A stretch of 64,000 nt of DNA from Auanema rhodensis (lineage: Eukaryota; Animalia; Nematoda). The translations under genes were made by a program, and so were the position numbers. The notes under the pieces were generated by a model. The model saw only the letters and a list, made by a program, of their open reading frames with translations, did not search any database and had not been told where the DNA came from. The stretch is taken from assembly GCA_964057225.1 (NCBI GenBank), contig OZ059895.1, positions 4,526,001 to 4,590,000 of the forward strand. The letters run 5' to 3'. Shown here piece after piece: positions 34,471-61,928 of this stretch. Position 1 is the stretch's first letter, and every line of letters begins with the position of its first letter.

Positions 34471-35356
34471 GTTAAAACAGGTGCACTACACATGTACCAC
34501 ATGGCAAAAGTTGTGTTCATAAAAATATGATAAATAGCTGTACACCACATGTACCTATAACGCTAAAGAATACTTACTATGCCAAGGGGTCATGAGTATA
34601 TACGAATATTTTCAAACTTTTTAGCATCAAAAAATGTTACTTTAAAGTAATTGTTGTTGTAGCCCTAATAGTTTATAAATGTTCTGATAGCTAATGTATT
34701 TCATAACTATGTTCAAGAATAGAATAAATGTTTCGTAATATATTTATTGAACAATAAATTTTCATTTAAAATTAGAACATGTGTTAACATTTTGTAAGAG
34801 TTTCTTTTTTACAAAGTGTCTGGAAATGTTGTACTTGTAATCGGATGTGTACAAGTCTGTTTTTCGCAACAATCCTGCGTTTCCTCAGAAGGATCCAACA
34901 TTTTGAATTAGTGTTTCCTAAACTATAAAAATAAGAGTGTACCACAGCTGTTATAATAAGAATATGAATACAATATTAAACGATCCTATTGTAATATTCC
35001 ACAATTTTGGCTGACAGTTGTTATTGTATAAGGACTTGTCACAAATGAGTTGAATTATTGTTAAATGTTTGGATTTACGAAATCGAATGCTGTAACAAGT
35101 AATTAATAAGCGGTTAGTTTACAGGTTGTTAATCCGGCAACTGTTGGCGCAATCGGTGAATTTTAGCGCATTTGGCAGCTGTTTGCGCAACAAACTGCTA
35201 ATTAATGTATAAATGCATATATTTGTTGTAATATATAACAAATAGAAAAGCCGCATACAGCAGTCAACTGTTTTGTGAAAGAGGCGGAGTGGGTAGCGCT
35301 TTACAACAAAGTTTGTATAAAAGGTGGCAAAATTTTTTAGACCGAAATTTGCATTT

Positions 35357-35480
35357 CAGCTCCGCCAACAAGTCGACTCTACGATCCAGCTCTGTCAACA
35401 AGTCTACTCTCCGATCCAGCTCCGCCACCAAGTCTTCTCGCCGATCCACCTCTGCCAACAAGCCGACGATCTGATCCAAC
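35357..35480 (+). repeat. Four degenerate 30-bp tandem repeats upstream of the accessory gene
   Basis: cagctccgccaacaagtcgactctacgatc-like units, in frame with the downstream ORF (LRQQVDSTIQ-like). Confidence 0.8.
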
Positions 35481-35578
35481 GTCAACAGACTGCTGCTAGG
35501 ACTTTCCTCTACTCTACTTGGACCCTAGACGTAAAAGTTCGTTGTTCTTTAGGAAAAGCCTCTAATTGGGCTACAAAC

Positions 35579-36172
35579 ATGAAGCGTTCCGCTCTTGTTG
35601 ATGTAGAGAATATTGTACCTTCGACACCGGAACCGGATGTTTCAAGACCACCCACACCAGGACCCAACTTTGCTGCCACATTCTTTGGTAAGGTTTTATT
35701 TTTGTTATTAATTATTTTTTGTTTAGACACACCAAAAAAGCAGGTACAAATCTCAAAGGATAGCTCTCCACAACAGCCTGTAGTTATGAGACCAATATGT
35801 CTCTGCAAAACTTGTAGGGATACATTGCAAGTCGTAGACGAGTACCACTGTTTCAGCCTCTGTGTCAAGTGTAGAGCGAGGAATGATGCCTTAGGGCTTT
35901 TAAAAGTTTTCCGTCATTATAAACCTGAAAATTCAACAATCAATGTGAGATTATGAAATTATTAATTCTAATTATTATTTTTTCTTTTACAGATGCGTTC
36001 CTATTCTAGCATGTCATCAAAACAATTGTTGAATAATATGGGTTACATTGCCATTTATACTGATGAGTCAACTGTCAAGTCTTTTGGTTATAAGCAGAAT
36101 GTGTTCTACTTTAAATTAAGTCAACAGGCGCTCAACTTGAATATGCTTATCCGTTTTGATCCATCGTTTTGA
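35579..36172 (+). CDS. Spliced Maverick accessory gene with a Cys/His zinc-binding cluster (~168 aa), function unknown
   Basis: Predicted exons 35579-35687, 35727-35944 and 35993-36172, joined by GT-AG introns that keep the frame. Motif CLCKTC-x11-HCFSLCVKC; Pro/Thr/acidic N-terminus. Confidence 0.6.
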
Positions 36173-36469
36173 CTACAACAAGCACAAACTGTTTAATGGA
36201 CAGTTGGTTGATTTTGTTATGTTATATTTAAATTTTCTTAGCCGTAACATTTTTTTTTCCAGCTCTTGAAGTTTGAAATTATCCATCAACAGCCAACTCT
36301 CAAACCAACTGGTAAGCATTGAAAATTTAAATATTAATCAGTTTATAATTATAGGTTATATCATTGTCTTGGCTTTTATGTTTTGCTGGTTTTTTATTGT
36401 TACAATATAAACGATTGATCAAATAAATCATTTATTATTAATACAATTGTTTACAACAACAGTGAGAAA

Positions 36470-37576
36470 TTATACATTTAAATTTTCTGCATCTATCCAT
36501 TCATTAAAGTTGTCGGGATAGCCACTCCATTTTACAAATACTTGGCGTTTACCATTTCGTGTACGCTCTTTCAAAACTTTCTCAATATAGTACTGGTTGC
36601 TTTTATTAGTAGCCAACATAAGTTCAGGCTCATAGAATATTCCCTTTATACGTTCACCATTATAATCTACAAGTTTATACACGGTTGGGTTCCCGGCTAC
36701 AATCTCATCAATTGTGAATAGTTCCATTGTATATCCAGACTCGTAACTTTTTTTAAAAGTACGCCTGTTCTTGCTTATGCGAACATTATCACCAATTTTG
36801 AATCGGTTGCGAACAGCTGGTGCATATTCTTCAACGAATATATTTGCTGTAACATCTACGGGGCGCATTTTAATCGACCGATTATAAGATTTGTTTATTC
36901 CTTCGACCAAGTCATCTAGTATATCAATCCATCGATGATTATTCTTGTAATAGAGATATTTCATCATGCGCGTTTTTAAAGTTCTATTTGCTCGCTCCAC
37001 CATTGCCGCCTTTTGTGGTGAACTTGTTGATCCATGCAGTATGGCAAATTTTTTGAATAGTTTTTCACAATGACTATTATAAAACTCTGCACCGTTATCC
37101 GTTATTAGTTGGATTGGTATAAAATCCTTGAATACATTTTCAAATGCAGTAGCAACCTCTAAACCACCTTTAGTTTTCAAAGGCCTAACATATAACATGC
37201 GTGTATAAACATCAATCATGGTCAACATGTAAGCATAGCCGTCATTTGATTTTTTATATTTTTGCATATCAACCAAATCTGCTTGCATTGTTAGGAATCG
37301 ACCACAGCCTCTAGTCTTTTTAGTCTGCATATGCAGTCTCGTTGGTTTATGACGTGTAAAAGTTTCAGAGTCTTGCAAAAAACTTTCAACTTGTGCTTTT
37401 GCGATGCCATGCTTTCGCGCTTCCAATATTAGATTTTTGGCAGACGTATAAGAAGCTGGATGCTTAATATTATAATAAATGTTCTCCAAAACATTACTTC
37501 CATAATCTAATGTAGAATCGTTTACGGCCTTTACCATTCTGTGTTTCTCCCGCCTGAGGTGTGTAATATGATTCAC
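36470..37576 (-). CDS. Maverick retroviral-like (rve) integrase with C-terminal chromodomain
   Basis: QADLVDM, IDVYTR, TDNGAEF and VERANRTLK (DDE core); C-terminal YYIEKVL...VKWSGYPDNFNEWI. Confidence 0.96.
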   Translation of the reverse strand: MNHITHLRREKHRMVKAVNDSTLDYGSNVLENIYYNIKHPASYTSAKNLILEARKHGIAKAQVESFLQDSETFTRHKPTRLHMQTKKTRGCGRFLTMQADLVDMQKYKKSNDGYAYMLTMIDVYTRMLYVRPLKTKGGLEVATAFENVFKDFIPIQLITDNGAEFYNSHCEKLFKKFAILHGSTSSPQKAAMVERANRTLKTRMMKYLYYKNNHRWIDILDDLVEGINKSYNRSIKMRPVDVTANIFVEEYAPAVRNRFKIGDNVRISKNRRTFKKSYESGYTMELFTIDEIVAGNPTVYKLVDYNGERIKGIFYEPELMLATNKSNQYYIEKVLKERTRNGKRQVFVKWSGYPDNFNEWIDAENLNV

Positions 37577-38411
37577 CAGTGTCAGCGGGTTTTGTCTTTT
37601 TATTTATAGCTTTGGATTTAAATGTACGACGCGGAGAGGGTGAATATCGAATAACAGCCTTACGGTGACGTGGTGTTCTAGGTAATATATTAATAGTAGC
37701 ATCCAAGTCTGTGACAGCCGATGTGGATGTAGGCACGGGCTCAACTGAATCCTTGTTACTGACGGCAGGCTCTACATTTTTTGCCTTCTTATTAGGGCTA
37801 GAGACCCCATTACTGGCTAAGAATTTGGCTAATACTGAGAATCCATTGGGTTCCGTTTTTGTTTTATCCAGTACAAAATCCAAAATTTTTGTAATATTTG
37901 TGTTTGGTACGGGCTCATTATTAATCACAAGTTGGTTATTTTTGTTTGTACGCACCTCTGGAAATCTTTCCCACAGATCGTTGTACTTTCGTGGCAGCTT
38001 GTATTCTGGCAATAATGGTGGATCAGCATTTTCCACTTGTACTGATATAGGCGCATCTATGCTTTCTCTATAGTTTTTGAGACGGGTGGTTGAGAAGTTG
38101 AGACATCTTTTAAAACCAAAATAAGCAATTCCACATGAAATTATTGTTTTCAATTGTTTGTGTGAAATCGTTGCCAATAAAGTTTTAGCCTTTTCGGGTG
38201 TGCGTATCAAAGCTATTTGACGTAATAATGAGGATATGGGCAAAAGGGTTTTATATTCCTTGTTAGTTAAGAAGAAATTATTATTTTTCACAATATTAAA
38301 TACAATTTCAACAATAATTTCAATTTGTGAAAAAGAAAATGAGGAAACAGAACAAGGGGTTTTGGCACAAGAAGATAAAAAGTTGTAATTTGACAAAATA
38401 CGACCACTCAT
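37494..38411 (-). CDS. Maverick conserved hypothetical protein (possibly two fused modules)
   Basis: 305-aa ORF between the ATPase and integrase, with a C-terminal QNGKG protease-type motif. Its start is repeated in copy B at 63898. Confidence 0.7.
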   Translation of the reverse strand: MSGRILSNYNFLSSCAKTPCSVSSFSFSQIEIIVEIVFNIVKNNNFFLTNKEYKTLLPISSLLRQIALIRTPEKAKTLLATISHKQLKTIISCGIAYFGFKRCLNFSTTRLKNYRESIDAPISVQVENADPPLLPEYKLPRKYNDLWERFPEVRTNKNNQLVINNEPVPNTNITKILDFVLDKTKTEPNGFSVLAKFLASNGVSSPNKKAKNVEPAVSNKDSVEPVPTSTSAVTDLDATINILPRTPRHRKAVIRYSPSPRRTFKSKAINKKTKPADTGESYYTPQAGETQNGKGRKRFYIRLWK

Positions 38412-38423
38412 TGAACATGCACA

Positions 38424-39048
38424 TTAAACACTGAATATATTTCTGGCTACATAAACAATAGGGTGCTCCGCAGTTATATCTGATAGTATACGCTGTTTCT
38501 CATTTGTTAAAGGATGGTTGTCAATCAGTAAATGACTATAGGGTGTAGACATTGTATCATCATATGCTTCTAGAGCATTTTTAAAGCGGGGGCCAAATAA
38601 TTGTTGCAGACAATTGCGTATTTGTAATATATCCGAATGACTTTTCATTAGTATTATATATGTACTATTAATTCGACTGGTCCTGTCGAGCTGAAATGCA
38701 GCTTGCACAAGATTAAACACTGCCAAATTCCAGTGATGTGCCCACACTGTAAAAATGTTGTTGAGTAATTCTTTAGCGGCTTTATTCGATGAGAAAAAAT
38801 TCATCAAATCATCCAGCACTAGTATGGTGTTTACTCCCTTTTGCTCGAAATTGAATAACTATTAAACGCTCATCATTTAATGGAACACCTGACGATGCTC
38901 CACATTGACTGAACCAGAATATTCTATCAATGGGGACGTTGAAAAACTTTTCAGTATTTTCACATATACGTTTTATAAGGGTAGTTTTACCACATTGCGT
39001 TGCCCCTATTACAGTTGTCTGACTGGGTAGTTTGAAGCTGAAAACCAT
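38424..39048 (-). pseudogene. Packaging ATPase (A32/FtsK-like), frameshifted in copy A
   Basis: Walker A GATQCGKTT and Walker B LVLDDLM lie in different frames. Compared with copy B, 27 bp are replaced by 4 bp at 38847-38850. Confidence 0.92.
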
Positions 39049-39127
39049 AATCAACCACTCGTAAATGTACCTATAATGCAAATGATTTCATTTATACTAG
39101 TGTGCACGCATCAGGTGGTGGTCTCTG

Positions 39128-39985
39128 ATGGATGATTTTTACATTACTTTGCCGTCATCAGTTGACTCTGAAAAAAGTAATACCTCATCAGTGTTTCTTA
39201 CCAGGTTACCTGAAACATTAAGGCTACGCAATAACAGATATTGCATTGGGCTGACAGACATAATTTTTCCGTGTTCGATATTAAATGTACAAGAAAATCT
39301 TTCTTATACACTACGTTTTTCCAACAGAAAGTTTATTCTGCACTTACCCAAGGGTAACTATGCAAATGGTGATGAAATAATACGCAGAATCAATGCTGGA
39401 AAAGAACAATTTATTGCTAGTAGCACTAAACCTCTTGGAGCTGAGGAAGAAGCACGTATAAAGGGTTTAATAGATAAAGATGAAGATGTGAAAAAGTGGT
39501 ATAATAATCGACAAGCTGAGGCTAAACTTGTCAAGGAAATGCTGGCAGACGCCACGTTTCGGTTTAACAAAACACTACAACGCATAGAGTTTGTAACAAG
39601 TAAGCGGCTATTATTGAATGCAACACTCGGTGATGCTCTCGCATATTTTCTTGGCTTTGAGAATAAAATTATCAACGACACGTTAATAGCCAGGCGCCCC
39701 ATTGATTTTTCAAATAACATTAATACAATGTATATATATTGTGATATTGTAGAATATTCCATTCTCGGTAATGTGAAAGCTAATTTACTTGCATGTTTAC
39801 CTGTACCACCTCCCACTGAATTTGGTAAAATGATTGCCAAAACGTTTAATCCTATTCGTTATGTACCAATCACTAAGCAAACACTCGATACTATACGTAT
39901 TGAAATTTTAGATGAATTTGGCCGCCCTATGCAATTTAATTATGGTTCTACAGTTGTTACATTACATGTTAAAAATGTGAAATAA
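39128..39985 (+). CDS. Minor capsid (penton-like) protein, intact
   Basis: N-terminal DDFYITLPS...F.TRLP and C-terminal MYIYCDIVE...F.PIRYVP...IRIEILDEFG...TLH, typical of Polinton minor capsids. Confidence 0.88.
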   Translation: MDDFYITLPSSVDSEKSNTSSVFLTRLPETLRLRNNRYCIGLTDIIFPCSILNVQENLSYTLRFSNRKFILHLPKGNYANGDEIIRRINAGKEQFIASSTKPLGAEEEARIKGLIDKDEDVKKWYNNRQAEAKLVKEMLADATFRFNKTLQRIEFVTSKRLLLNATLGDALAYFLGFENKIINDTLIARRPIDFSNNINTMYIYCDIVEYSILGNVKANLLACLPVPPPTEFGKMIAKTFNPIRYVPITKQTLDTIRIEILDEFGRPMQFNYGSTVVTLHVKNVK

Positions 39986-39990
39986 ATGTT

Positions 39991-40440
39991 TTATTCAACA
40001 GTTATACAAGACCACATTACGATTTTCGAAGGTTTAAAAGGTAGTTCAGCGCCGTTTTGTTCGATGCGCGGCTCGTGTTGTGAATATTCTCGGTTACTAT
40101 TGCAGCGGCATCGTTTTGGTTCGGTTGACTGTACAAACTCCTGAGTTTTTTCAGAGGGTTCGCTGGTATCATTTCCATCACCATCTTTACCATTCGTTCC
40201 ATTACTATTATGAAGACGCCGAATATGACGCTGACAATTGAATCTTGTTCAATAAGGGCACAAACGTCTACGAACACCATCCAAATGTCCATATTTTTGA
40301 ATAAAGTCAGCATTGCTGATATAACTGTTACATACGGGTTGAATCCCGTCATGTCTTTTCAATATGTGATCACTAAAATGCTTGACTGATGAAAATATTT
40401 CCTTGCACGTAACACAATACTTGTTACATAAAAGTTCCAT
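39991..40440 (-). pseudogene. C2H2 zinc-finger gene, truncated in copy A
   Basis: A 15-bp deletion relative to copy B near 40250 creates CPY-TGA inside the second finger. Confidence 0.8.
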
Positions 40441-40481
40441 TAGAGGAAAATAAAAAACAACCACACACAGTCAACTCACTT

Positions 40482-40652
40482 TTATATAATGAGTGGAATA
40501 ATGACTAGTGTAGTACAAAAGCCTAGTCCCAGAGATATTCCTTTAATGAATGGCACTGAAATACGTTTCAAAATCTTTTTGTACAGGGGTGTTGGCACAG
40601 ATTGTTCCAACGTGTATCTTATACATAATTCACAGTGACAGGGAATATTCAT
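40482..40652 (-). CDS. Small (56 aa) CxCxxC protein with a C-terminal hydrophobic segment
   Basis: MNIPCHCELC...GISLGLGFCTTLVIIPLII; open in both copies. Confidence 0.5.
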   Translation of the reverse strand: MNIPCHCELCIRYTLEQSVPTPLYKKILKRISVPFIKGISLGLGFCTTLVIIPLII

Positions 40653-40698
40653 AACTGACCACCTAATGTAGCAGGTGACGTTTTAATGGCAAAGTTGA

Positions 40699-41154
40699 TC
40701 ATATGCTAGATAATTTATAGTCGAATACTTTATGCATAAACGCTTTAATAAAGACATCATCGTTTTGTAATAGTTTAAAAAATGAACAAATGCTTTCAAA
40801 TGTATTACCAGCTGACAACATTAGTATTACAAATATTGCATAACCACCACAAGTGTATTCAATTATGCGTTGTGGTTTGCAAGTATTAACTTTTACATTT
40901 TTATATTTGGCCAGATAATGACGAATGTACTTGTTCATTTTATAACCCAAGCTACAGAAAAAGTAAGCTTGATCATTACGTACAAAGATGACTTGCCAAT
41001 GTGTGCCCGGTTTATCGTGTGTGTCAGTATTTACAACAAGTGCAAAGTTCTTTCGACGTGTTTTGGGTAGAGTATCGGCGTTAAATACACCGAAGAATAG
41101 TTTTCGAGTGATGCGGACAGATCGCAATAGTGACGCTATTTCAGACGAATACAT
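40699..41154 (-). CDS. Adenain-like cysteine (maturation) protease
   Basis: VVNTD...PGTHW and Q...TCGGYA motifs. Confidence 0.92.
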   Translation of the reverse strand: MYSSEIASLLRSVRITRKLFFGVFNADTLPKTRRKNFALVVNTDTHDKPGTHWQVIFVRNDQAYFFCSLGYKMNKYIRHYLAKYKNVKVNTCKPQRIIEYTCGGYAIFVILMLSAGNTFESICSFFKLLQNDDVFIKAFMHKVFDYKLSSI

Positions 41155-41204
41155 TTAGTAAAATGATCTAGTGTAACTTTTGTATTGCGCACGTGCGGTT
41201 CAAT

Positions 41205-41657
41205 ATGCCACACCTCCTTCTAGACTTGAACTCAATTCAATGGACAACACTTTTGAATCAACAAATGGGTGGGGCGCCATTTAGTGGAATGATGTTTCAA
41301 CGTGGTATGCAGAGAGGTCATGGCCTGGGTGGTATACTGGCAACTTTGGCATCGTTTTTACCTCGCATTATTCAATCACCTATAGCCCAAAATCTCATCA
41401 ATGCTGGAAGGAATGCATTATCCAGTGCTGTAAGCAATAGTCCAGTTGTAAACTCACCTCTTGGCGGCCAGTTGCTAAAAACTAGCAATGAAATTGTTGA
41501 TGGGGTGCTCAAGGGCGATAATATCAAGCAAACTCTTAAAACAGCCGGCCGGCAGGCTATACGAGATCTTACCGGTTTGGGCAAGCGGCGACGACGCAAA
41601 ACCACAAAACCTCATAAGCGTCTGTGCATAACTCGTGAGCGGTCGTATCGTATTTAA
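41205..41657 (+). CDS. Virion core or membrane-lytic precursor-like protein
   Basis: QMGG and QRGHGLGG protease-type sites, then an amphipathic helix and a basic tail (GKRRRRK); directly upstream of the major capsid gene. Confidence 0.7.
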   Translation: MPHLLLDLNSIQWTTLLNQQMGGAPFSGMMFQRGMQRGHGLGGILATLASFLPRIIQSPIAQNLINAGRNALSSAVSNSPVVNSPLGGQLLKTSNEIVDGVLKGDNIKQTLKTAGRQAIRDLTGLGKRRRRKTTKPHKRLCITRERSYRI

Positions 41658-42992
41658 ATGGCTAAATTGATAGATTCAAAATCAGCACAAGCACTTTTAC
41701 CTAATATTAATTATAGTGACATACCGGCGTCGGCATTAGGTGTTGAATCCACTCGTACTGTACAAGTTCCTTTAAAAAATACTTTTCTTCCTCAAGGACC
41801 ATGGGAATTTGTTATAGCCCAAAATTCCAAATCATTTCTTAATCTGAGAAGGTGTTGGTTGAATGTAAAATTCAAAATTGTAACCACAAACGGTGATCCA
41901 GTACCAGACAACCTTGTTTTTGCACCATGCCAACAATTTGCAGCCAGTTTGATACACTCGTATCATTTAAAAATTGGTGATGTTAGCGTGTATGACTCTA
42001 CCGTAAATCATGCCTACAAAACATATATTGAGAATATTCTAATGTATAGCAACGATGTTAAAGAGAGCAAACTTGCCATATCAGGCTATTATGCGGATAG
42101 ATATATAGATAATGCAGCCAGTCCTGGCTTTAGAGCGCGACAAGGGCTTGTTAAAAATGGCATATTGTGTGAGATGGCTGCTCCCATCAGTATCGACTTA
42201 TTCAATCAGGAACGACTGTTTGTAAACTATTCAAAAATGGAGCTAACTGCATATCCAAACCGTGATAATTTCTTAATTGACACACTTGGATGGAATAATG
42301 AAAGCAAGGATGCTGCAATGAAGGAGGAGTTTCCAAACCTGAAAATAGATATCAACGATGTGCACTTGCTTATTCAAGAGTTTGATCTAAACGCTGGATT
42401 AGCTATGGCTATAGAAGATAAACTTGTAAAGGAACGAATACACTACCCCATGACGTCAGTGAAAATGCGCTCTTATTTCATAGAAGGAGGCCGTTTGGAT
42501 TCACCCAATAACATATTATTCACGTCGCATACACCGAAACGTGTTGTAGTAGGTCTTGTCGGCGCACACGCCTATAATGGTACTTTTAAACATTCGCCAT
42601 TCAACTTTAAACCGTTTGAATTGAAAAATATATACTTGACGCTCAACAATCGGGTAATACCTACCCGCCCTTATAATTTAGAATGGCGTTCTTCCTATGC
42701 CACAGCATATATTGACATGTTGGAGGGTTTGGGTCTTGGTCGTACAGATTCATCCAATGGTATTACACCAGCAATGTATAAAACCGGCTTCACATTTTTT
42801 GTATTTGATATTTCACCGACTGTACACTCGTCCGAGTTATTTGATGTTATACGACAAGGTAATGTGGCCCTGAAATTGGAATTTGGTCAACAAACGCCGC
42901 AAGAGGGTTTATATGCTATTGTTTATGCAGAATATGACTCTATTCTTTCAATTGACAACAATCGTGCTCCATATATTGATACCAGTTTGTAA
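41658..42992 (+). CDS. Major capsid protein (double jelly-roll)
   Basis: 444 aa; GP.EF, P.RVVVGLV...AYNG....SPFNF.PF and G.TFFVFDISP motifs typical of Polinton MCPs. Confidence 0.93.
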   Translation: MAKLIDSKSAQALLPNINYSDIPASALGVESTRTVQVPLKNTFLPQGPWEFVIAQNSKSFLNLRRCWLNVKFKIVTTNGDPVPDNLVFAPCQQFAASLIHSYHLKIGDVSVYDSTVNHAYKTYIENILMYSNDVKESKLAISGYYADRYIDNAASPGFRARQGLVKNGILCEMAAPISIDLFNQERLFVNYSKMELTAYPNRDNFLIDTLGWNNESKDAAMKEEFPNLKIDINDVHLLIQEFDLNAGLAMAIEDKLVKERIHYPMTSVKMRSYFIEGGRLDSPNNILFTSHTPKRVVVGLVGAHAYNGTFKHSPFNFKPFELKNIYLTLNNRVIPTRPYNLEWRSSYATAYIDMLEGLGLGRTDSSNGITPAMYKTGFTFFVFDISPTVHSSELFDVIRQGNVALKLEFGQQTPQEGLYAIVYAEYDSILSIDNNRAPYIDTSL

Positions 42993-43130
42993 TGTATGTA
43001 ATAAACTCTTTAAAACATTTGATGAGAAGAATAAAATTTATTAATACAACTATACATAAAAATCTATAAATACAACCATATACAAATATACACGCGATAA
43101 TAAAATTTATAAATTCAAATATATTAAAAA

Positions 43131-46100
43131 TTATTCACAATAACCATAGGGTAAAGTACTAAAATCGTCTAGATAACAAAGTTTATCCATTACGACCTTG
43201 GTACTCTTTGTCATGTCCATCGTGGATATGGCACCAAGCTGCCTCTTTAATAACGTTGTTTTGGTTTTTAAAACCAATTTTTCTCCATCCATCACGAGTC
43301 CTCGAACCAATCGCTCCATACTTTGATAGTTTACCACGGTGGCTGCCGTGTGGTCCAGCGTCTGTAATTTTAAAAAGTTTCTCAATAATATATTTTTATA
43401 CTTACCACTCCCTTTGCCTTGGTGATATACTTGACCTGACCAGCTGCATTTACTAGCTCATAACTATAAACTTTTGCAGCTGGTGAAACAAATTTGGTCA
43501 TTGACCAACCATCGGGTATTTCTGAGGTTAGTTTACCTAACCATTCACCCTTCATATCCTCAATTGGATCAGGCTGATCGAGGCATTTTAAATAAATTAG
43601 AGAATCGGTGTCTAAATGATGTACGTTTAAATTGTATACAAAGTATAAAATTACCTGTATACACCAAGTTCTTTCCAATTTTTTCCATTGCCTTATACAA
43701 TAGTAGCCTTGCATGAGCGGTTGTATAAGCCGCTATGGCTACATTTGTAAACGGCGCTGGTGCCAGGTGTGAGTCTTCTGGCACTGTTGTACAGTACGCC
43801 ACATCGTCCACAATTTTGAAGCCCGTGAGTTCCCTTGCAGGATCAGTTATGATCCTACCAATTTCAGGATCCTCAACACCAATAATCTTGGTTTGGGCTT
43901 TATCCGGTCTTTGACCCATTTTACCCCATACACTATAAACAAATTTGTAAATTTTTATTTTTAAAAGTTTACATACCTATTCAGCTGTAGTTTGGCAATG
44001 CTACGCATGGCCGCATTCTTTTCAATTTTGTTGCTATCCAGAGCAACACCAGTGTTCTCCTCGTGCTCTTGGAGATATTTTAGCTGTAAAATTCTATTTA
44101 ATGCCATACTTTTCATGACACATACCTTTTCAGCCTCTGTCATATTTGGCTTAGGCCAGCCCGATGCCTCTTGCTTAATTTTTATGTACTTTTGTACAAA
44201 ATCCTTGAATAGGCCGCCTTGCTGCCATTCATCCCAGTGCCAAACCTCATAAACATGAAGCACTTTGTAGCCACGCTGTATGGCACATTCGAGCTCTACA
44301 TGCGTTACAGTCAGATGCAGCTTTCGAGCGTCTTCATCATCTTGGTGCGGGCATGTTACATTTTTGCCTCTGTTTGCACATGTGCGGCAGTTTGTAAAAA
44401 TTAATTTACCGCCTATGCGTGTTCCTAATACAGGATACATCAAATTTGTGGGTGCAAGCACGTCACATTTCACAAGGCCCTTGTATGGGCAGCATGCCTC
44501 AAAACTCTCAAAGCCCTCAGTAATCACTTTAGGATTACCCACAGGGTAATAGGCATCAAATGCCGTTACATATGGATAAAGTGAACAAAAGTCCACATAC
44601 TCTAGTGAGTATCTATCCGAAGCTTGGGCCAGAAGCTTATATGTTTGAGTTCGGCCGCCGGTGAAGGCATCTCGAGGTGCCAATCGAGTTACAACCTCAG
44701 TGTCCTTCATAAAATTTGCCATTTGCTCATTTGATGACATTTGAGCAGTAATTTCGTGTTCCCACACAGTGGTTACACTAATGCCCTGGCTTTGAATAGC
44801 CTCAAGCCTTTTCATGGTTTTTTCATAAACCTAAATGTTTCAGCTTAAAATGATTAAAAAAGTCACAATTACCTCTTCCATTGTTTCACCATTTCTGCCT
44901 GGTGCAATAGCAGTCTTGTTGGTGCACTGGGGGCAACCATGATAAATACAGCCATTAAACTACAAAATTTTATCATTTTTTACATTTATTACAAATTACT
45001 CACCTCATAGCCGTGATTAGCCACACTGTCATAAGCATCAAGTAGATAGCGTTGGCCATCTACTCGCACAACAAATTCACCACCATTAAGCTTATGCATT
45101 AATGGGCGGCCTAATCCGTGTTCTAGCCATTTAATGTATTTTATGGCAATTATACTCTGCTTCTGGCCGGCATAATAACCAGTCTCAGGCAGAATACCCA
45201 CTTGGTTCTCTTTAATGTGGTTCATTTTCAACTGTAATATACTAGTTTTGAAAATGCTTGTATTTTAAAAAACTTGCCTGGAATAAAGAGAAACTGGCAA
45301 ATGTCATACATTGTATGACAGGATTCCAGCCAGTGGTGGCGGTTGCCAACTTCATGTACACTTTCATACAGTTGGTTAAAATACGGACATCTGTCCTACA
45401 ATATTCCAGAAGCTCCTCATCAAAATCAAACACACTTTGATTACGCTCCTCATACCAAATATTGAATGAAGCTAGGTCTTCTGCTTTCATTCTAGCAGTA
45501 CAATAGTAATGCTTTGGTGGCAAGGATGGTAGCACTTTGCCATAATTTATTGGGTGGTTAAAGAGGTATGGGAATTGTCCTTTACTCATATCAGGTACAC
45601 CAAATGCCTTGGGTAACGCTGATAAGGGTAAAGGCACTAGTAAATAACTATCTTTAAAACATAAATGGTTAATGTTTTGACCTCTTAATGGCTTGACAAC
45701 CATGCTAATAATCTTGGTCCCATTTAAAATGGGGTCAGGATATATTCCACGGTTTATCAGCCTAGACACCAAGAAATGTATGTCAAAGCGCGACCCGTTG
45801 TGCGCAATCAAAATTGCATTATCATTCTCAGAAAAGTTGAGTAACCAATCAAGGAAACGATCTGTTACAGACCATTCACTATCACCTTGTTGGTACCCAA
45901 AATGGCCCTCCTTGGTTGTGCATTTCTCACAGGAATTGGCATCTATACAACTTTCACAAAATTTGTTATACACAACCATATTGGGCCATTGTTCATCTGC
46001 ATATTCATGAACATTTGTGCCGTTTTTTAACACAACTGTTTCAAAGTCATAAAATATAATCTTAAACAAGTAAGCATTACACTTGTAAAGATGTTAAATA

Positions 46101-48900
46101 CAAACCTTGAACTTTTCTTGCTTCTTTTTTAGCTGAGCCTTCTTCTTGTCGTTAGGTGGAACCCAACAACAAGAGTGCTCTTCAGGCTTTGTCTGACCGC
46201 ACTTTTTGCAGAATTTTTCATTGCAATTGTGCGGTCTATCAGCACGGACCATGTGATAGTGATCACACGCCACACATGTCTGAATTTAAGCTTGTTATGT
46301 ACAACTTTAAATTTTCACAAAATACCTTGAATTTTCGGCAGGCTTTTCGCAAATGCCTATCGAAGCATTGTTGAGTTTTAAACAAAACTCTACAACTATC
46401 ACACCTCACGCTACTCTCAACCACATTCCCCATCGCATTACAATTATAGGTGTGGCATTTTTTACATTTGGCTTTACATCTATGCAACACTGTATTGTAA
46501 GATAACTTACAGTGTTGACATATAATACCATCAAAAATTTTCGAACGACTACCAGCTGTAATACAATCATAGTGATTATTTCGGTAACCTAGTGTTACCA
46601 ATTTGCTAGCCGCTTCATTAAATATTTTCTGGATAGTGTACATACGCTGTCCAGGCGGTCTAGCATATACTACAAACTTATAGTTTGTATTACAGCTGGC
46701 AATAATGTTTAAATGAATTAAATTATAATTTGGTAAATCTACAGAAATACCACACCTATTTAATAAATTGATATGGTGTGGCTGATTTGGCAATAAGATG
46801 TAATTGCGACGAAGGTTTTGCAGCCTTCGCTTCTCATCGCCATCTTCAGTGGCCAGCTCGTCAGCTTTCCACATTCCCACAACTGCTGATCTAGCCAGAC
46901 AATGTGAGTCAGTGTTGGCAATGGTTCCAGGTATTTTGAGTTCGGGGTCAAAATAAAACCCGACTCTACCTTCACCAGGCATCAGGCTTGGCTGCGCTGG
47001 CCTTTCATCAAACACATACATCTCAATATTCATTGCCTGGCTGATCACAGCCTCTCGTTTTGATTGCTGCACCTTGCTGATGGCATTCATAATGGCTACG
47101 CCATCCAGATGCTCCCTTCTACGAAAGTCCATAAATATGGAGCCCTTTTCAAAGGAAGGGTGCTCAATTGATAAACAAAATAAGGCTTTTTGCTTATCAG
47201 GCACACCGCTTTCAGCAAGACAACGATCAAGGAATTCGTTGAATAACCGCGGCATGATAACATGCATTGGTTCATCAACATTTTCCAAGTGTGGGAACGT
47301 GAGCGATCGAACGACCACGTTGGTAAAACGACCGGTGCGTTTTATGCGCCGGTGTGACCACTATAATAAACAACATTTATAACAGTTTACATGCTTTTTT
47401 TATTTTTATTTTTAAAAGTTTAAATAAAAATAGTTTTAAGAATATATATGAATTGTTTCATCTTTTGCTTAAAATTATTATGTCTCTTTGTTTGTTATAG
47501 TCGTTATTTTTTTTTTATTTAATTGAAATGTTTTCAAATATATGTTTAGTTTGTTTCAAAACGATTAGAAAAATACAAAATATTTAAATGTTTCAGTTTT
47601 TGAGCATCATTTTTTTTTTTAATGTTTAAAAATTTAATAAATAAAAATTAAATAATAGTAGAATTATAAAATTGTTTAAAATATATATAAATAAAAGAGA
47701 TGAAGTGAAATGGTTTAGAAAATACAAAATATTTAAATGTTTCAGTTTTTGAGCATCACAATATTGAAATTTAAATGTTTTTTAGTGATTAAAAATTTAA
47801 TAAACGAAATTATGAAAAAGTGATAGAAATTTAAATTTGTTCAAGATATGTGATTAAATAAAAGAGATGAAGTGAAATGGCTTAGAAAATATAAATCAAT
47901 TTCATGTTTCAGTTTTTGAGCATCACAATATTGAAATTTAAATGTTTTTTTAATGATTAAAAATTTAAAAAATGAAATTATGAAATAGTGGTAGAAATAT
48001 AAAATTGTTTAAAATAGATGAAGTGAAATGGTTTAGAAAAAAAACAAAATATTTAAATGTTTCTGTTTTTGCGCATCAAAATATTTAAATTTAAGTGTAA
48101 TTTAATGATTAAAAAGTTTAATAAATAAAAATTATAAAGTAGTGGTAAAAATTTAAAATTGTTTAAAATATGAAATTAAATAAAAGAGATGGAGTGAAAT
48201 GATTTGAAAAATACAAAATATTTAAATGTGTCAGTTTTTGAGCATCAAAATATTTAAATTTAAGTGTATTTTAATGAATAAAAATTTAATAAATGATATT
48301 ATGGCATGGATTTGGGATAAGATTTTATTTTATTTTTCAAAAAGCCACCAAATGTATGATGATTTGTTTAAAAATAGATGGCAGAATTCAAAATTGCTCA
48401 AGATATGTAATCAAATAAAAGATATAGAGTGAAAAGAATTGTAACATGAAAAAAAAAAAAAAAGGTTAAAAGCTCGTACCTTTATTTGACAAACATCGTT
48501 GAAGGATGAACCGCCTCCTAATTGTTCTCCACTAGTTGATGGCATCTCGGGATTCCATTCTCTGGAAAAAAAAAATTTCATGCTTTTTCATTATATGATA
48601 GCTTACTCATTATCGCTGTCATCCAAGGTGATAACTTCAATAACCCTTGATGACGAGGGACCACTATTGGAAGTGGTTATTGCGGGGTCACACAGCTCAA
48701 CACCACCACTCTCGGTAAGTTTTATGCGCTTACTAAAAAAAAAACAAAGATGTATATTTTAAAAATATTGTTAAATTACCTGAGTTGATAAATTTCCTCA
48801 TAATCGAACCCCAACTCTTCACATACACGCTTATAACTGAAAATAAATATTTTAATTAAAAAAAAAAAGATAGGAAAAAACACAACCTGTTAGCAGCCAT
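43131..48900 (-). CDS. polB: Protein-primed family B DNA polymerase, 14 exons, ~1370 aa, intact in copy A
   Basis: Exons 48900-48887, 48836-48780, 48732-48607, 48561-48480, 47360-46326, 46279-46106, 46060-45278, 45231-45004, 44959-44873, 44830-44126, 44083-43977, 43932-43655, 43611-43406 and 43361-43131 (4113 nt, stop-free). Motifs FYDFET, HNGSRFD, YCRTDV, DFCSLYP, KLQLNSVWGK, YTDTDS and KAKG. The first four exons are less certain. Confidence 0.9.
47560..48300. repeat. Degenerate ~150-170 bp AT-rich tandem repeats inside the 1.1-kb polB intron 4
   Basis: gatgaagtgaaatgg...aaatgtttcagtttttgagcatc-like units recur near 47699, 47867, 48017 and 48188. Confidence 0.8.
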
Positions 48901-49129
48901 TGTATCTTGTTAGAATAAAATTATGCAAACTCTGAGAGGTAGTTATCCATATTTCATTTTACACATTTATATTACACTTCATTGCAAGAACAGTCAGTTG
49001 TTTTATTGTCACGTAACAATGTTGCCAACACTCAACATTGTATCATATTACAGCTGTCAACAGTGGCAGTTGCCAATCCGCTGTTAATAAATACGCATGT
49101 ATTGTTGTGGTCAGCGCAACTGTTTCAAC

Positions 49130-50195
49130 AATCTTATCGAATTAATCATCGATATGTGTTCTTTGAGTTAGGGTATTAGAATATTAGTAATATACACACT
49201 AAAACTTTTTCTATATACTCTTCTTTCCAAGTAATTTGAGAATATTAGAAATCTTGATGCATATGCTATACAGCTATTTGTTATACTTTAATGAACAAGT
49301 GCTTTGCCATTTGGTTCATTGTAGGTCAACGTATCTGTTTCACCAATCTTATCGAATTGATATTCGATATGTGTTCCATTAACATTTTTGATACTAAAAA
49401 CTATATACCCATGACCCCTTGGCATAGTAAGTATTCGTTAGCGTTATGGGTACTTGTGCTGTACAGCTATTTATCATATTTTTATGAACAAAACTTTTGC
49501 CATGTGGTACATGTGTGGGTCAGCGCACCTGTTTTAACGATCTTATCGAATTAATCTTCGATATGTGTTCCATTGGAAACAACACAATTGTTTGTGAATC
49601 CTATCGAATTAACCTTCGATATGTGTTTTATTGAGTTAGTATATTAGAATATACTAATATAAAATTAAAAAAAAAAGGTTCTTTAAACTATTCTTTCATG
49701 TAATTTGAAAATATTAGACAACTTGGTACATGTGGTGTACAGCTATTTATCATATTTTTATGAACAAAACGTTTGCCATGTGGTTTTTGTGTGGGTCAGT
49801 GCACCTGTTTTAACGATCTTATCGAATTAACCTTCGATATGTGTTCCATTAACTTTTGTATTTCATATCGTTCTTATCGAATTAACCTTCGATATGTGTT
49901 CCATTAACTTTTGTATTCCATATCGTTCTTATCGAATTAACTTTCGATATGTGTTCCATTGATTTACCCATAATAGGTACGGTGAACAAAATGGTTCGCC
50001 TAGATAAACAACAAACTTTTTAAAAGTTAAATTAATAATTATAAACTATAATAAACACAATCTATAAACAATGTAAACAAATAAAATTAAAAAATAAATA
50101 TATAAAATATATCTTATCGAATTAACCTTCGATATGTGTTTCATTAAATTTAGTTTAAATATTTATTACTTCTTATCGAATTAACCTTCGATATG
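49130..50195. promoter_or_regulatory. Cluster of nine TATCGAA-N6-TTCGATA dyad sites between the TIR and the polB start
   Basis: cttatcgaattaaccttcgatatg-like motif recurs. Two more copies lie in the left TIR (near 34387 and 34447). Function is inferred. Confidence 0.6.
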
Positions 50196-50741
50196 AGTTC
50201 CATTGATTAACCCATAAAAGGTACGGTGAACATATTAATTAGCTTTTATATATTTTATTCAAATTTTATAAATTAAAACAAAAACAATATATATTAAAAA
50301 GTTTATTCAAATGTATAAATATTAAAAATACATTTAAAGGGAGATAATTTTAATAATATTTTAAAAATATATAAAATACATTTAAAAAGAAATAATTAAA
50401 TAATAATATTTAAAACATATATTAATAATAAAAATTCATTTAAAAAGAAATAAGTTTAAAAATATTTACAAATACAATTAACAAATATATAAATAATAAA
50501 AATTCATTTAAAATAATACATTAAAAAATAATTAAAAAAAAAAAATCATGCATTTTGATCCATGCGCAGGCTCGAGAGCCTGCCTCGGGAGGAAAAGTAT
50601 ATTTTTGACAGCTGACGCCGAAAATATGATTTTGACAGCTGACGCCCCCAAAAGTATGATTTTAGCAGCTGACGCCCTCAAAAGTATGTTTTTAGCAACT
50701 GTTTGGGGGCGTGGTTAGTAAATTCGGCATGGCTCTCTACT
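50113..50741 (-). repeat. Maverick A right (polB-side) TIR
   Basis: Reverse complement of the left TIR with mismatches; nearly identical to the Maverick B TIR starting at 51624. Confidence 0.9.
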
Positions 50742-51623: not shown

Positions 51624-53464
51624 AGTAGAGAGCCATGCCGAATTTACTAACCACGCCCCCAAACAGTTGCTAAAAACATACTTTTGAGGGCGTCAGCTGC
51701 TAAAATCATACTTTTGGGGGCGTCAGCTGTCAAAATCATATTTTCGGCGTCAGCTGTCAAAAATATACTTTTCCTCCCGAGGCAGGCTCTCGAGCCTGCG
51801 CATGGATCAAAATGCATGATTTTTTTTTTAAAATTATTTTTTAATGTATTATTTTAAATGAATTTTTATTATTTATATATTTGTTAATTGTATTTGTAAA
51901 TATTTTTAAACTTATTTCTTTTTAAATGAATTTTTATTATTAATATATGTTTTAAATATTATTATTTAATTATTTCTTTTTAAATGTATTTTATATATTT
52001 TTAAAATATTATTAAAATTATCTCCCTTTAAATGTATTTTTAATATTTATACATTTGAATAAACTTTTTAATATATATTGTTTTTGTTTTAATTTATAAA
52101 ATTTGAATAAAATATATAAAAGCTAATTAATATGTTCACCGTACCTTTTATGGGTTAATCAATGGAACTCATATCGAAGGTTAATTCGATAAGAAGTAAT
52201 AAATATTTAAACTAAATTTAATGAAACACATATCGAAGGTTAATTCGATAAGATATATTTTATATATTTATTTTTTAATTTTATTTGTTTACATTGTTTA
52301 TAGATTGTGTTTATTATAGTTTATAATTATTAATTTAACTTTTAAAAAGTTTGTTGTTTATCTAGGCGAACCATTTTGTTCACCGTACCTATTATGGGTA
52401 AATCAATGGAACACATATCGAAAGTTAATTCGATAAGAACGATATGGAATACAAAAGTTAATGGAACACATATCGAAGGTTAATTCGATAAGAACGATAT
52501 GAAATACAAAAGTTAATGGAACACATATCGAAGGTTAATTCGATAAGATCGTTAAAACAGGTGCACTGACCCACACAAAAACCACATGGCAAACGTTTTG
52601 TTCATAAAAATATGATAAATAGCTGTACACCACATGTACCAAGTTGTCTAATATTTTCAAATTACATGAAAGAATAGTTTAAAGAACCTTTTTTTTTTAA
52701 TTTTATATTAGTATATTCTAATATACTAACTCAATAAAACACATATCGAAGGTTAATTCGATAGGATTCACAAACAATTGTGTTGTTTCCAATGGAACAC
52801 ATATCGAAGATTAATTCGATAAGATCGTTAAAACAGGTGCGCTGACCCACACATGTACCACATGGCAAAAGTTTTGTTCATAAAAATATGATAAATAGCT
52901 GTACAGCACAAGTACCCATAACGCTAACGAATACTTACTATGCCAAGGGGTCATGGGTATATAGTTTTTAGTATCAAAAATGTTAATGGAACACATATCG
53001 AATATCAATTCGATAAGATTGGTGAAACAGATACGTTGACCTACAATGAACCAAATGGCAAAGCACTTGTTCATTAAAGTATAACAAATAGCTGTATAGC
53101 ATATGCATCAAGATTTCTAATATTCTCAAATTACTTGGAAAGAAGAGTATATAGAAAAAGTTTTAGTGTGTATATTACTAATATTCTAATACCCTAACTC
53201 AAAGAACACATATCGATGATTAATTCGATAAGATTGTTGAAACAGTTGCGCTGACCACAACAATACATGCGTATTTATTAACAGCGGATTGGCAACTGCC
53301 ACTGTTGACAGCTGTAATATGATACAATGTTGAGTGTTGGCAACATTGTTACGTGACAATAAAACAACTGACTGTTCTTGCAATGAAGTGTAATATAAAT
53401 GTGTAAAATGAAATATGGATAACTACCTCTCAGAGTTTGCATAATTTTATTCTAACAAGATACA

Positions 53465-56400
53465 ATGGCTGCTAACAGGTTGTGTTTTTTCCTATCTTTT
53501 TTTTTTTAATTAAAATATTTATTTTCAGTTATAAGCGTGTATGTGAAGAGTTGGGGTTCGATTATGAGGAAATTTATCAACTCAGGTAATTTAACAATAT
53601 TTTTAAAATATACATCTTTGTTTTTTTTTTAGTAAGCGCATAAAACTTACCGAGAGTGGTGGTGTTGAGCTGTGTGACCCCGCAATAACCACTTCCAATA
53701 GTGGTCCCTCGTCATCAAGGGTTATTGAAGTTATCACCTTGGATGACAGCGATAATGAGTAAGCTATCATATAATGAAAAAGCATGAAATTTTTTTTTTC
53801 CAGAGAATGGAATCCCGAGATGCCATCAACTAGTGGAGAACAATTAGGAGGCGGTTCATCCTTCAACGATGTTTGTCAAATAAAGGTACGAGCTTTTAAC
53901 CTTTTTTTTTTTTTTTCATGTTACAATTCTTTTCACTCTATATCTTTTATTTGATTACATATCTTGAGCAATTTTGAATTCTGCCATCTATTTTTAAACA
54001 AATCATCATACATTTGGTGGCTTTTTGAAAAATAAAATAAAATCTTATCCCAAATCCATGCCATAATATCATTTATTAAATTTTTATTCATTAAAATACA
54101 CTTAAATTTAAATATTTTGATGCTCAAAAACTGACACATTTAAATATTTTGTATTTTTCAAATCATTTCACTCCATCTCTTTTATTTAATTTCATATTTT
54201 AAACAATTTTAAATTTTTACCACTACTTTATAATTTTTATTTATTAAACTTTTTAATCATTAAATTACACTTAAATTTAAATATTTTGATGCGCAAAAAC
54301 AGAAACATTTAAATATTTTGTTTTTTTTCTAAACCATTTCACTTCATCTATTTTAAACAATTTTATATTTCTACCACTATTTCATAATTTCATTTTTTAA
54401 ATTTTTAATCATTAAAAAAACATTTAAATTTCAATATTGTGATGCTCAAAAACTGAAACATGAAATTGATTTATATTTTCTAAGCCATTTCACTTCATCT
54501 CTTTTATTTAATCACATATCTTGAACAAATTTAAATTTCTATCACTTTTTCATAATTTCGTTTATTAAATTTTTAATCACTAAAAAACATTTAAATTTCA
54601 ATATTGTGATGCTCAAAAACTGAAACATTTAAATATTTTGTATTTTCTAAACCATTTCACTTCATCTCTTTTATTTATATATATTTTAAACAATTTTATA
54701 ATTCTACTATTATTTAATTTTTATTTATTAAATTTTTAAACATTAAAAAAAAAAAATGATGCTCAAAAACTGAAACATTTAAATATTTTGTATTTTTCTA
54801 ATCGTTTTGAAACAAACTAAACATATATTTGAAAACATTTCAATTAAATAAAAAAAAAATAACGACTATAACAAACAAAGAGACATAATAATTTTAAGCA
54901 AAAGATGAAACAATTCATATATATTCTTAAAACTATTTTTATTTAAACTTTTAAAAATAAAAATAAAAAAAGCATGTAAACTGTTATAAATGTTGTTTAT
55001 TATAGTGGTCACACCGGCGCATAAAACGCACCGGTCGTTTTACCAACGTGGTCGTTCGATCGCTCACGTTCCCACACTTGGAAAATGTTGATGAACCAAT
55101 GCATGTTATCATGCCGCGGTTATTCAACGAATTCCTTGATCGTTGTCTTGCTGAAAGCGGTGTGCCTGATAAGCAAAAAGCCTTATTTTGTTTATCAATT
55201 GAGCACCCTTCCTTTGAAAAGGGCTCCATATTTATGGACTTTCGTAGAAGGGAGCATCTGGATGGCGTAGCCATTATGAATGCCATCAGCAAGGTGCAGC
55301 AATCAAAACGAGAGGCTGTGATCAGCCAGGCAATGAATATTGAGATGTATGTGTTTGATGAAAGGCCAGCGCAGCCAAGCCTGATGCCTGGTGAAGGTAG
55401 AGTCGGGTTTTATTTTGACCCCGAACTCAAAATACCTGGAACCATTGCCAACACTGACTCACATTGTCTGGCTAGATCAGCAGTTGTGGGAATGTGGAAA
55501 GCTGACGAGCTGGCCACTGAAGATGGCGATGAGAAGCGAAGGCTGCAAAACCTTCGTCGCAATTACATCTTATTGCCAAATCAGCCACACCATATCAATT
55601 TATTAAATAGGTGTGGTATTTCTGTAGATTTACCAAATTATAATTTAATTCATTTAAACATTATTGCCAGCTGTAATACAAACTATAAGTTTGTAGTATA
55701 TGCTAGACCGCCTGGACAGCGTATGTACACTATCCAGAAAATATTTAATGAAGCGGCTAGCAAATTGGTAACACTAGGTTACCGAAATAATCACTATGAT
55801 TGTATTACAGCTGGTAGTCGTTCGAAAATTTTTGATGGTATTATATGTCAACACTGTAAGTTATCTTACAATACAGTGTTGCATAGATGTAAAGCCAAAT
55901 GTAAAAAATGCCACACCTATAATTGTAATGCGATGGGGAATGTGGTTGAGAGTAGCGTGAGGTGTGATAGTTGTAGAGTTTTGTTTAAAACTCAACAATG
56001 CTTCGATAGGCATTTGCGAAAAGCCTGCCGAAAATTCAAGGTATTTTGTGAAAATTTAAAGTTGTACATAACAAGCTTAAATTCAGACATGTGTGGCGTG
56101 TGATCACTATCACATGGTCCGTGCTGATAGACCGCACAATTGCAATGAAAAATTCTGCAAAAAGTGCGGTCAGACAAAGCCTGAAGAGCACTCTTGTTGT
56201 TGGGTTCCACCTAACGACAAGAAGAAGGCTCAGCTAAAAAAGAAGCAAGAAAAGTTCAAGGTTTGTATTTAACATCTTTACAAGTGTAATGCTTACTTGT
56301 TTAAGATTATATTTTATGACTTTGAAACAGTTGTGTTAAAAAACGGCACAAATGTTCATGAATATGCAGATGAACAATGGCCCAATATGGTTGTGTATAA

Positions 56401-59237: not shown

Positions 59238-59375
59238 TTTTTAATATATTTGAATTTATAAATTTTATTATCGCGTGTATATTTGTATATGGTTGTATTT
59301 ATAGATTTTTATGTATAGTTGTATTAATAAATTTTATTCTTCTCATCAAATGTTTTAAAGAGTTTATTACATACA

Positions 59376-61163: not shown

Positions 61164-61213
61164 ATTGAACCGCACGTGCGCAATACAAAAGTTACACTAG
61201 ATCATTTTACTAA

Positions 61214-61669: not shown

Positions 61670-61716
61670 TCAACCTCGCCATTAAAAACGTCACCTGCTA
61701 CATTAGGTGGTCAGTT

Positions 61717-61887: not shown

Positions 61888-61928
61888 AAGTGAGTTGACT
61901 GTGTGTGGTTGTTTTTTATTTTCCTCTA

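Follow-up and report, generated by a model that had tools for sequence, protein, structure and literature searches.

The stretch of Auanema rhodensis (Nematoda) DNA analysed here, 64,000 nt long and hereafter called the window, corresponds to positions 4,526,001 to 4,590,000 of contig OZ059895.1 (assembly GCA_964057225.1), and all coordinates below refer to the window. It contains an element that is a Polinton/Maverick by its terminal inverted repeats (TIRs), 6-bp target site duplication (TSD), pPolB polymerase gene, integrase and capsid gene. The pPolB gene lies on the minus strand at 43131..48900, from a start ATG at 48900 to a TAA stop at 43133-43131, and comprises 14 exons and 13 introns with 4,113 coding nt (1,370 codons plus the stop). 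No internal stop is present in the 14 exons or in the five split codons. Of the introns, twelve measure 42-50 nt and the remaining one 1,119 nt; twelve have GT-AG ends and one GC-AG. The model was rebuilt from splice signals, stop positions and homologue matches, and it bears out in every point what an earlier note had observed in this DNA, where fragmentary open reading frames (ORFs) were joined through these short introns and a single long one into a stop-free polymerase.

Exons 1 (48900-48887), 2 (48836-48780), 3 (48732-48607) and 4 (48561-48480) encode an acidic N-terminal leader and are separated by intron 1 (48886-48837, 50 nt), intron 2 (48779-48733, 47 nt) and intron 3 (48606-48562, 45 nt), all predicted from frame fit, GT-AG ends and G+C contrast only. 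Intron 4 (48479-47361, 1,119 nt, 18% G+C) contains about 4.2 copies of a 167-nt tandem unit. Since homologue length is uninformative at junctions 1-3, the main support for exons 1-4 and introns 1-4 comes from splice signals, the difference in G+C content and the fit of the frame. Exon 5 (47360-46326), the longest with 345 codons, matches columns 43-344 of a homologue profile (E 3e-38), and the Cys-rich exon 6 (46279-46106) matches columns 351-407; intron 5 between them (46325-46280, 46 nt, phase 0) causes a frameshift when retained, and intron 6 (46105-46061, 45 nt, phase 0) an in-frame stop. Exon 7 (46060-45278) carries the N-terminal part of PF03175, which by the established domain order we take to be the proofreading exonuclease region; PF03175 matches lie above the cut-off on exons 7 and 10. 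Intron 7 (45277-45232, 46 nt, phase 0) is the GC-AG intron; of the donors tried, its AG|GCAAGT alone restores both the frame and collinearity with the profile. Exon 8, intron 8 (45003-44960, 44 nt) and exon 9 occupy 45231-44873, followed by intron 9 (44872-44831, 42 nt, with two in-frame stops) and by exon 10 with motif A (44830-44126, columns 748-976). Intron 10 (44125-44084, 42 nt) is in frame and stop-free. Exon 11 (44083-43977, columns 978-1011) encodes the first half of motif B, and intron 11 (43976-43933, 44 nt) is inserted in phase 2 in the Ser codon of KLQLN-S-VWGK. Exon 12 and intron 12 (43654-43612, 43 nt), assigned by frame and profile, occupy 43932-43612, the intron lying in phase 1 in the first Asp of YT-D-TDS (motif C). 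Exon 13, intron 13 (43405-43362, 44 nt) and exon 14 occupy 43611-43131; intron 13 is in phase 0 directly after KAKGV. The three interruptions that had been read from the letters in and next to these motifs are thus located at introns 11, 12 and 13.

Signals of major-class spliceosomal introns are present throughout, namely the GT-AG or GC-AG ends and an AG at the exon end, the latter in 11 of the 13 cases against a background of 6% (P 4e-12). The G+C content is 20% in the short introns and 42% in the exons (computed with the intron-7 donor 4 nt off the final model). Retention of a single intron brings a stop into the frame for 12 of the 13, intron 10 alone being open, in agreement with the proposal that the gene depends on splicing. 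The 12 short introns of the gene that were compared show no similarity to one another (the best pair score was reached in 14% of 200 shuffles), and an origin from introners is therefore rejected. A weak scan for intron candidates, tuned on these introns, also returned four candidates on the antisense strand and a further one in the protease.

The homologue profile was made from 25 proteins of at least 900 aa, out of 38. Exons 5-14 cover it in their order along the gene, leaving gaps of 0-6 columns at the junctions. At junctions 7-13, the median span of the homologues equals the spliced span and not the span that a translated intron would give (23-25 of the 25 proteins informative), and the spliced length is matched also at junction 4 (17 informative proteins). 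At junction 6 homologues are one residue longer than the spliced form (14 informative). For the stop-free intron 10, 23 homologues deviate from the spliced length by at most one residue. P0188, a gene model of 322 aa from Auanema and the closest relative with a name, can be aligned collinearly over junctions 8-11 at 55-73% identity; it has an internal gap of its own relative to exon 10. An 836-aa database protein of the same clade, P0095, reads through junctions 5-9, for which a plain ORF call is assumed. A PDB sequence match was not found for P0001, nor was a relative found among the viral contigs searched.

Contigs from three sequencing runs (X1, X2 and X3) that bear the same species label and whose RNA status is guessed were mapped on 43100-47400, giving two, five and no contigs, respectively. 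They come from copies about 88-94% identical to the window gene, at a depth of 2-4. Two joints in X1 skip introns 11 and 13 exactly. A loose end in X1 resumes by eye in exon 10 beyond intron 10 (21 of 24 letters agree; of the six exon-11 positions preceding this match, two agree), and a loose end in X2 resumes by eye in exon 8 beyond intron 8 (14 of 16 letters agree). The same X2 contig keeps intron 9, with five substitutions and five indels in its 42 nt. One contig extends 8 nt beyond the intron-7 acceptor, which is not decisive because exon end and intron end are alike there (7/8), and intron 12 lies outside the contig coverage. Among 40 listed differences between contigs and window (four more are unlisted), 35 are exonic, comprising 28 synonymous and 7 nonsynonymous changes and no stop. 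The loss of intron 8 next to a kept intron 9 is most simply read as partly spliced RNA from related copies under selection, while the skips could instead represent intron-less DNA copies. The junctions proposed for examination in transcripts are thus found joined at introns 8, 10, 11 and 13, in RNA-like contigs of related copies, and intron 9 is found retained.

Three further candidates were considered in this gene. A 14th intron at 46742-46696 would disrupt the frame and take out a stretch that is open and matches homologues, and was therefore rejected. A GT donor at 45273 for intron 7 also breaks the frame. In exon 8, one X2 contig (depth 2.6) jumps by eye over 45 nt at 45111-45155, with GT-AG ends in one register, and a second contig runs across uninterrupted; this may reflect cryptic splicing inside the part encoding the nuclease, or else a deletion carried by a related copy.

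The distribution of these introns among relatives was surveyed in metagenomes, using the best 80 of 301 confirmed loci. Intron-sized insertions are absent from all informative loci at junctions 8 (0/26), 9 (0/19), 10 (0/77), 12 (0/56) and 13 (0/10), and at junction 7 one of 40 loci has an insertion nearby in a different register. In the tree, the pPolB groups with proteins of Caenorhabditis, Auanema and Steinernema (support 98/91), which together with the intron size suggests a nematode as host, although Mavericks can cross species. Since most relatives are without them, the introns are likely to be gains, and this absence, together with splice signals and frame, supports the claim of the earlier note that host-style introns were acquired in this lineage. 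Two closer relatives, P0039 and P0108, end 3-5 residues past the site of intron 10, the first of these residues being Val (a GT codon), which hints that intron 10 may be common to the clade.

Insertions at junction 11 were found in 8 of 69 informative loci. In L001, L027 and L028, base and phase of insertion are those of window intron 11, and the GT-AG intron measures 103-158 nt; in L011, L012, L018, L019 and L023, an intron of 87-90 nt lies 5 nt downstream of this site. Comparison of intron positions thus gives a shared site at junction 11 and empty sites at junctions 8, 9, 10, 12 and 13. Both the L001-type and the L011-type lineages are 36-39% identical to the window protein (L028 is too short for the tree). 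A clade of the window, L001 and L027 is rejected by the approximately unbiased (AU) test (p 4e-5), and at least four changes in the presence of a motif-B intron are needed on a tree of 42 rows with the gene models left unscored. Introns in motif B are seen in DNA in three separate branches and two registers. Similarity between the introns at the shared site was not found, and old introns would show none either. L001 has five introns (88 to about 270 nt), one of which coincides with a window intron, and motif A, too, is interrupted by an intron in both L001 and L027 (in L001 in its Ser codon). On the whole, the emphasis laid on catalytic motifs is borne out in part: three of the nine alignable window junctions fall in the most conserved tenth of columns, and enrichment over the set is not significant (P 0.09). 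The site in motif B matters because it recurs in unrelated elements.

Truncated homologues point in the same direction, although their ORF ends are not verified in DNA and contigs may break at conserved sequence. Sixty of 185 homologues end in profile columns 980-1225, 18 of them in columns 1006-1016, where 2.7 would be expected if ends were uniform and 3.2 from the neighbouring columns; the motif C region has 5 of the 60. Seven homologues (P0055, P0060, P0091, P0099, P0154, P0157 and P0161), mutually 39-57% identical, end in LN-R, as read-through of AG|G would give, and among 118 proteins that continue, Arg never occurs at this place. The endings LNSFCK and SxW of others would fit two or three further registers. 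A control with motif patterns gave 15 of 124 ends after motif B and 0-1 elsewhere, but it is biased, as patterns of whole motifs cannot match interrupted motifs, and the column counts are relied on instead. In L003 (4574-4785), unrelated AT-rich sequence without an obvious donor follows the SLW of motif B, and P0131 ends likewise; this is possibly another kind of insertion at the motif. Collectively, motif B is a recurrent intron site across distantly related elements, at which introns were likely gained independently.

The pPolB belongs to Maverick copy 1 (33842..50741, 16,900 nt), which has the ends AGTAG...CTACT and TIRs of about 630 nt at 88% identity and is flanked by a perfect 6-bp duplication of GCCGTA. 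The major capsid protein (MCP) is encoded by a single ORF of 444 aa (41658..42992, plus strand), whose Atlas neighbours carry a DJR-like domain. The neighbours score 0.98, with 15-24% of members carrying PF21738, and clusters of virophage MCPs reach 0.96, although the recognition value is low and below the bar of the tool; other pPolB loci have capsid matches in the corresponding gene block. Next to it lie a small basic ORF, probably of core type (41205..41657, plus strand), and a putative single-ORF adenovirus-type protease (40699..41154, minus strand; PF00770 with E 0.002, below the curated cut-off). A single ORF at 39128..39985 (plus strand) is a probable minor capsid protein by position, size and weak matches in other Polinton loci; it has no Pfam match. 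The putative packaging ATPase (38426..39050, minus strand) is broken by a deletion in copy 1 and is a single 215-aa ORF in copy 2. Pfam matches of ATPase and protease are sub-threshold, and their homologues adjoin pPolB in other loci. The rve integrase with a chromodomain (36470..37537, minus strand) is a single ORF with a start codon and with PF00665 (37.3 bits against a cut-off of 32.6) and PF00385 above cut-off. A small left-end gene of about 168 codons (35579..36172, plus strand) has two predicted introns of 39 and 48 nt, based on frame fit and splice signals only. In the seven other core ORFs, 5,811 nt in all with the ATPase taken from copy 2, no intron is present, as against 13 in the 4,113 nt of pPolB, a distribution that a random split would give with P about 1e-5.

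Maverick copy 2 (51624..64000) is inverted, has one end inside the window and extends beyond it. All 12 short pPolB introns are letter-identical in the two copies, and since copies with different flanks share them, the element has moved together with its introns. Copy 2 has a frameshift in pPolB exon 7 and an interrupted minor-capsid ORF, so that each copy carries a lesion in some core gene. Between the copies there are about 36 substitutions and several indels over 38.3-41.4 kb and no substitution over 41.4-50.5 kb, a part that includes the capsid, the polymerase and most of the right end. This difference, seen in the comparison of window 38309-50741 with 51624-64000, where the copies lie head to head, suggests a conversion tract, a recombinant element or an assembly collapse near the centre of the palindrome.

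Exons 8 and 9 and the start of exon 10 appear to encode a Vsr-like nuclease domain, the fold being deduced through a model of P0188. Residues 12-137 of this model match Vsr (1cw0) with Z 9.5, a root-mean-square deviation of 3.6 and 113 aligned residues, the homing endonuclease I-Bth0305I with Z 7.6 and a mitoribosomal protein with Z 9.7; the Foldseek E-values for the region, taken alone, are not significant. The domain would lie between the exonuclease and polymerase parts, as in the pPolB2 of Jeong et al. (10.1101/2023.08.22.554363), and is itself interrupted by introns 8 and 9. Movement of pPolB cassettes between Polintons has been described in the same work, and a case is found among the metagenome loci: L011 and L024 (L011 4900-8500) are about 100% identical on both sides and 71-84% identical over the polymerase core, while the core of L011, which carries the motif-B intron, is about 92% identical to that of L023. 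By these identities the pair is a clean swap of the polymerase cassette. A homing-type breakpoint was not found at the intron of L011; the borders of the exchange are at the ends of the polymerase core.

Taken together, it is probable (about 0.8) that the pPolB is a gene with 13 introns removed by host splicing, which were gained singly in a nematode-resident Maverick lineage. This reading draws on the anatomy, the frame, the collinearity of homologues, four exact skips in related copies, the mostly synonymous exon change and the absence of the introns from most relatives; it presumes that the contigs are RNA and that the introns are gains and not ancestral. The integrated element would be transcribed by the host, whose major spliceosome would remove the introns, and full-length polymerase would be made only after their removal. 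The introns were likely gained one by one, and the most likely route is that break repair put short AT-rich filler behind an exon AG, inserts that host short-intron recognition can remove being tolerated; this route is about an even chance. The gains are concentrated in the polymerase gene and recur at motif B, likely because elements cut this locus and exchange it among themselves, or because splicing is affordable only for genes that are read early from the provirus. Recurrence at motif B without selection would also follow from a conserved proto-splice context. In practice, replication would have to pass a splicing gate of 13 steps, any benefit of which to the element is conjecture.

Several points weigh against this reading. 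The RNA status of the contigs is a guess, each junction is represented by one contig from a related copy and not from this one, and eight of the 13 introns have no usable read evidence, among them intron 7 with its ambiguous contig. Homologue length, uninformative also at junction 5, gives introns 1-3 and 5 no homology support. The gene models of Caenorhabditis, Steinernema and Auanema may themselves contain introns, so that the change within the nematode clade could be gain or loss. The ORF test is blind to an in-frame, stop-free intron in another core ORF. Junction repeats of the introns measure 0-4 nt, and these short repeats leave no clear footprint of break repair.

As to why introns accumulate in this gene, nuclease-driven immunity is a tentative and rather unlikely explanation. 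The Vsr-like endonucleases promoting pPolB replacement among co-resident elements might cut rivals at conserved motifs, so that a spliced-out insert destroying the target would be selected; break repair would make the insert and host splicing would turn it into a cost-free immunity allele, leading to repeated gain at motif B. This fits the motif-B introns in three branches and two registers (with the AU result), the 18 of 60 homologue ends against 3.2 locally expected together with the seven LN-R ends, the motif A introns of L001 and L027 and the motif C intron of the window, as well as the Vsr/I-Bth0305I-like fold and the cassette swap between L011 and L024. Inteins of family B polymerases occupy three conserved positions, one of them YGD|TDS (PMC549080), and spliceosomal introns are normally without preference for conserved sites (PMC2814812). 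On the other hand, cleavage at motif B is conjecture, the borders of the L011/L024 exchange are at the core ends and not at the intron, the other window introns, taken together, show no significant preference for conserved sites, the nuclease domain is itself split by introns 8 and 9, and some of the unverified ORF ends may mark contigs that break at conserved sequence. Motifs A and B presumably correspond to intein sites I and II; a literature search on intein sites a, b and c found nothing. Inteins and group I introns likewise occupy active-site motifs of family B polymerases repeatedly (PMC549080, PMC2814812), and the corresponding D|TDS bond region in motif C follows window intron 12 at a distance of two codons and two bases (PMC549080). 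They are, however, self-splicing and carry homing endonucleases, whereas the introns here are spliceosomal, 42-160 nt long and without an ORF. The available text of two further reports (PMC11296320, PMC12220804) deals with self-splicing introns only.

Introns might instead make the transcript host-like and shield it from germline small-RNA silencing, which is likewise doubtful. In C. elegans, ERI-6/7-dependent small interfering RNAs target intron-poor genes of possibly viral origin (PMC11414722), and the density of 13 introns in 4.1 kb and the predicted introns of the left-end gene are in keeping with such an escape. However, the integrase, ATPase, protease and capsid ORFs are intron-free, the recurrence at one motif is left unexplained, and a 10-bp AA/TT (PATC-like) periodicity was not found in intron 4, 281 of 300 shuffles scoring as high.

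Ancestral or horizontal inheritance, in which the motif-B intron and perhaps others are old and lost in most lineages, or spread by cassette recombination, is improbable. The exact match of site and phase with L001, L027 and L028 would be explained, pPolB cassettes do move (L011/L024; Jeong et al., 10.1101/2023.08.22.554363), and the ends of P0039 and P0108 hint at an intron 10 common to the clade. Against this stand the four or more changes on the tree, the several registers within a few codons and the single L001 intron out of five at a window position; the introns at the shared site are dissimilar, though old introns would be so too. Parallel gain has a precedent in Daphnia pulex, where AT-rich introns have arisen independently at nearly one site and a break-repair model has been proposed (PMC4202315). 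The Daphnia gains concern host genes of one species, often with repeats of 4-12 bp, whereas here a catalytic motif of a mobile element is affected in distant lineages and repeats do not exceed 4 nt. Introners in dinoflagellate eupolintoviruses are likewise intron-type inserts in Polinton-like proviruses, but they are transposon copies, mostly younger than the integration and scarce in coding regions (PMC12166617), while the introns here are dissimilar, confined to one core gene and moved with the element.

A regulated splicing switch in the style of the third intron of the P element, with retention under tissue or small-RNA control limiting active polymerase, is quite improbable. A contig that keeps intron 9 and is without intron 8 and the GC donor of intron 7 would be in line with it, and the P element, too, is mobile and relies on host splicing for its key enzyme, the regulation being demonstrated in that case (PMC7776569). 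Ordinary pre-mRNA would also give a single partly spliced contig, however, and one regulated intron would do instead of 13. Finally, a decayed pseudogene with AT-rich insertions that are merely intron-like, for which the core-gene lesions of both copies might speak, can hardly be maintained, as all 13 insertions have GT-AG or GC-AG ends and fit the frame, four are skipped exactly in related copies, exon change is mostly synonymous and two copies with different flanks share the introns.

The element otherwise resembles nematode Mavericks in its TIRs, 6-bp TSD, pPolB, integrase, capsid and putative ATPase and protease (Widen et al., 10.1101/2022.07.12.499685; Jeong et al., 10.1101/2023.08.22.554363). 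They likewise have an intron-bearing accessory gene near the left end, and the Vsr-like insert is as in the marine pPolB2 subgroup of Jeong et al. Vertebrate Mavericks share the core gene set, TIRs and 6-bp duplication (PMC8097293). Core genes are described as intronless by Widen et al., and spliceosomal introns are unmentioned in the available text of Jeong et al., in contrast to the 13 in the present pPolB. Spliceosomal introns in the pPolB of an animal Maverick were not found described in the literature searched, which left out supplements, most subscription papers and Repbase reports, sources that might contain gene models with introns. The earlier note had also expected that surveys based on ORFs would miss or downgrade the gene, and their thresholds agree with this: a search step across eukaryotes required a pPolB ORF of at least 900 aa (Jeong et al., 10.1101/2023.08.22.554363), and intact Mavericks have been defined by intronless ORFs (Barreat and Katzourakis, PMC8097293), whereas the longest exon here is 345 codons, and the element, with 13 introns in pPolB and a broken ATPase in copy 1, falls outside that definition. 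Survey steps based on tBLASTn could still catch the gene. Since Maverick core genes have been searched as intron-free, intron-rich copies would be scored as fossils or dropped, biasing counts of active elements and pPolB trees. With 13 introns in an ancestrally intron-poor gene and intron-free neighbours, the element offers a compact natural system for the study of spliceosomal intron gain, and because motif B has gained introns repeatedly in unrelated lineages, break-repair and proto-splice-site models can be put to a direct test. The contrast of a spliced polymerase with capsid, integrase and ATPase genes that are not spliced suggests two regimes of expression in the life cycle of Mavericks, which to our knowledge is still poorly understood.

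Some other features of the window were noticed. Around the left-end gene, there are a 30-nt tandem repeat in four copies upstream and more intron-like stretches downstream (regions 35357-35478 and 36203-36354, respectively). Copy 1 is flanked by a tyrosine-recombinase ORF (PF00589) and a weak Dam-like methyltransferase ORF on the same strand (32996-33910, 50742-51643), and both Mavericks are apparently inserted in one DIRS-like retroelement, 882 nt apart; the DIRS label is our assumption from the domain order. Immediately to the left of this element cluster lies a satellite array (6109-32500) of about 75 copies of a 351-nt unit at 98-100% identity. At 2-4150 on the minus strand, an open frame of at least 1,383 aa has a gag-like first half and a Cys-rich, envelope-like second half, and is probably, as judged by eye, a long terminal repeat (LTR) retroelement.

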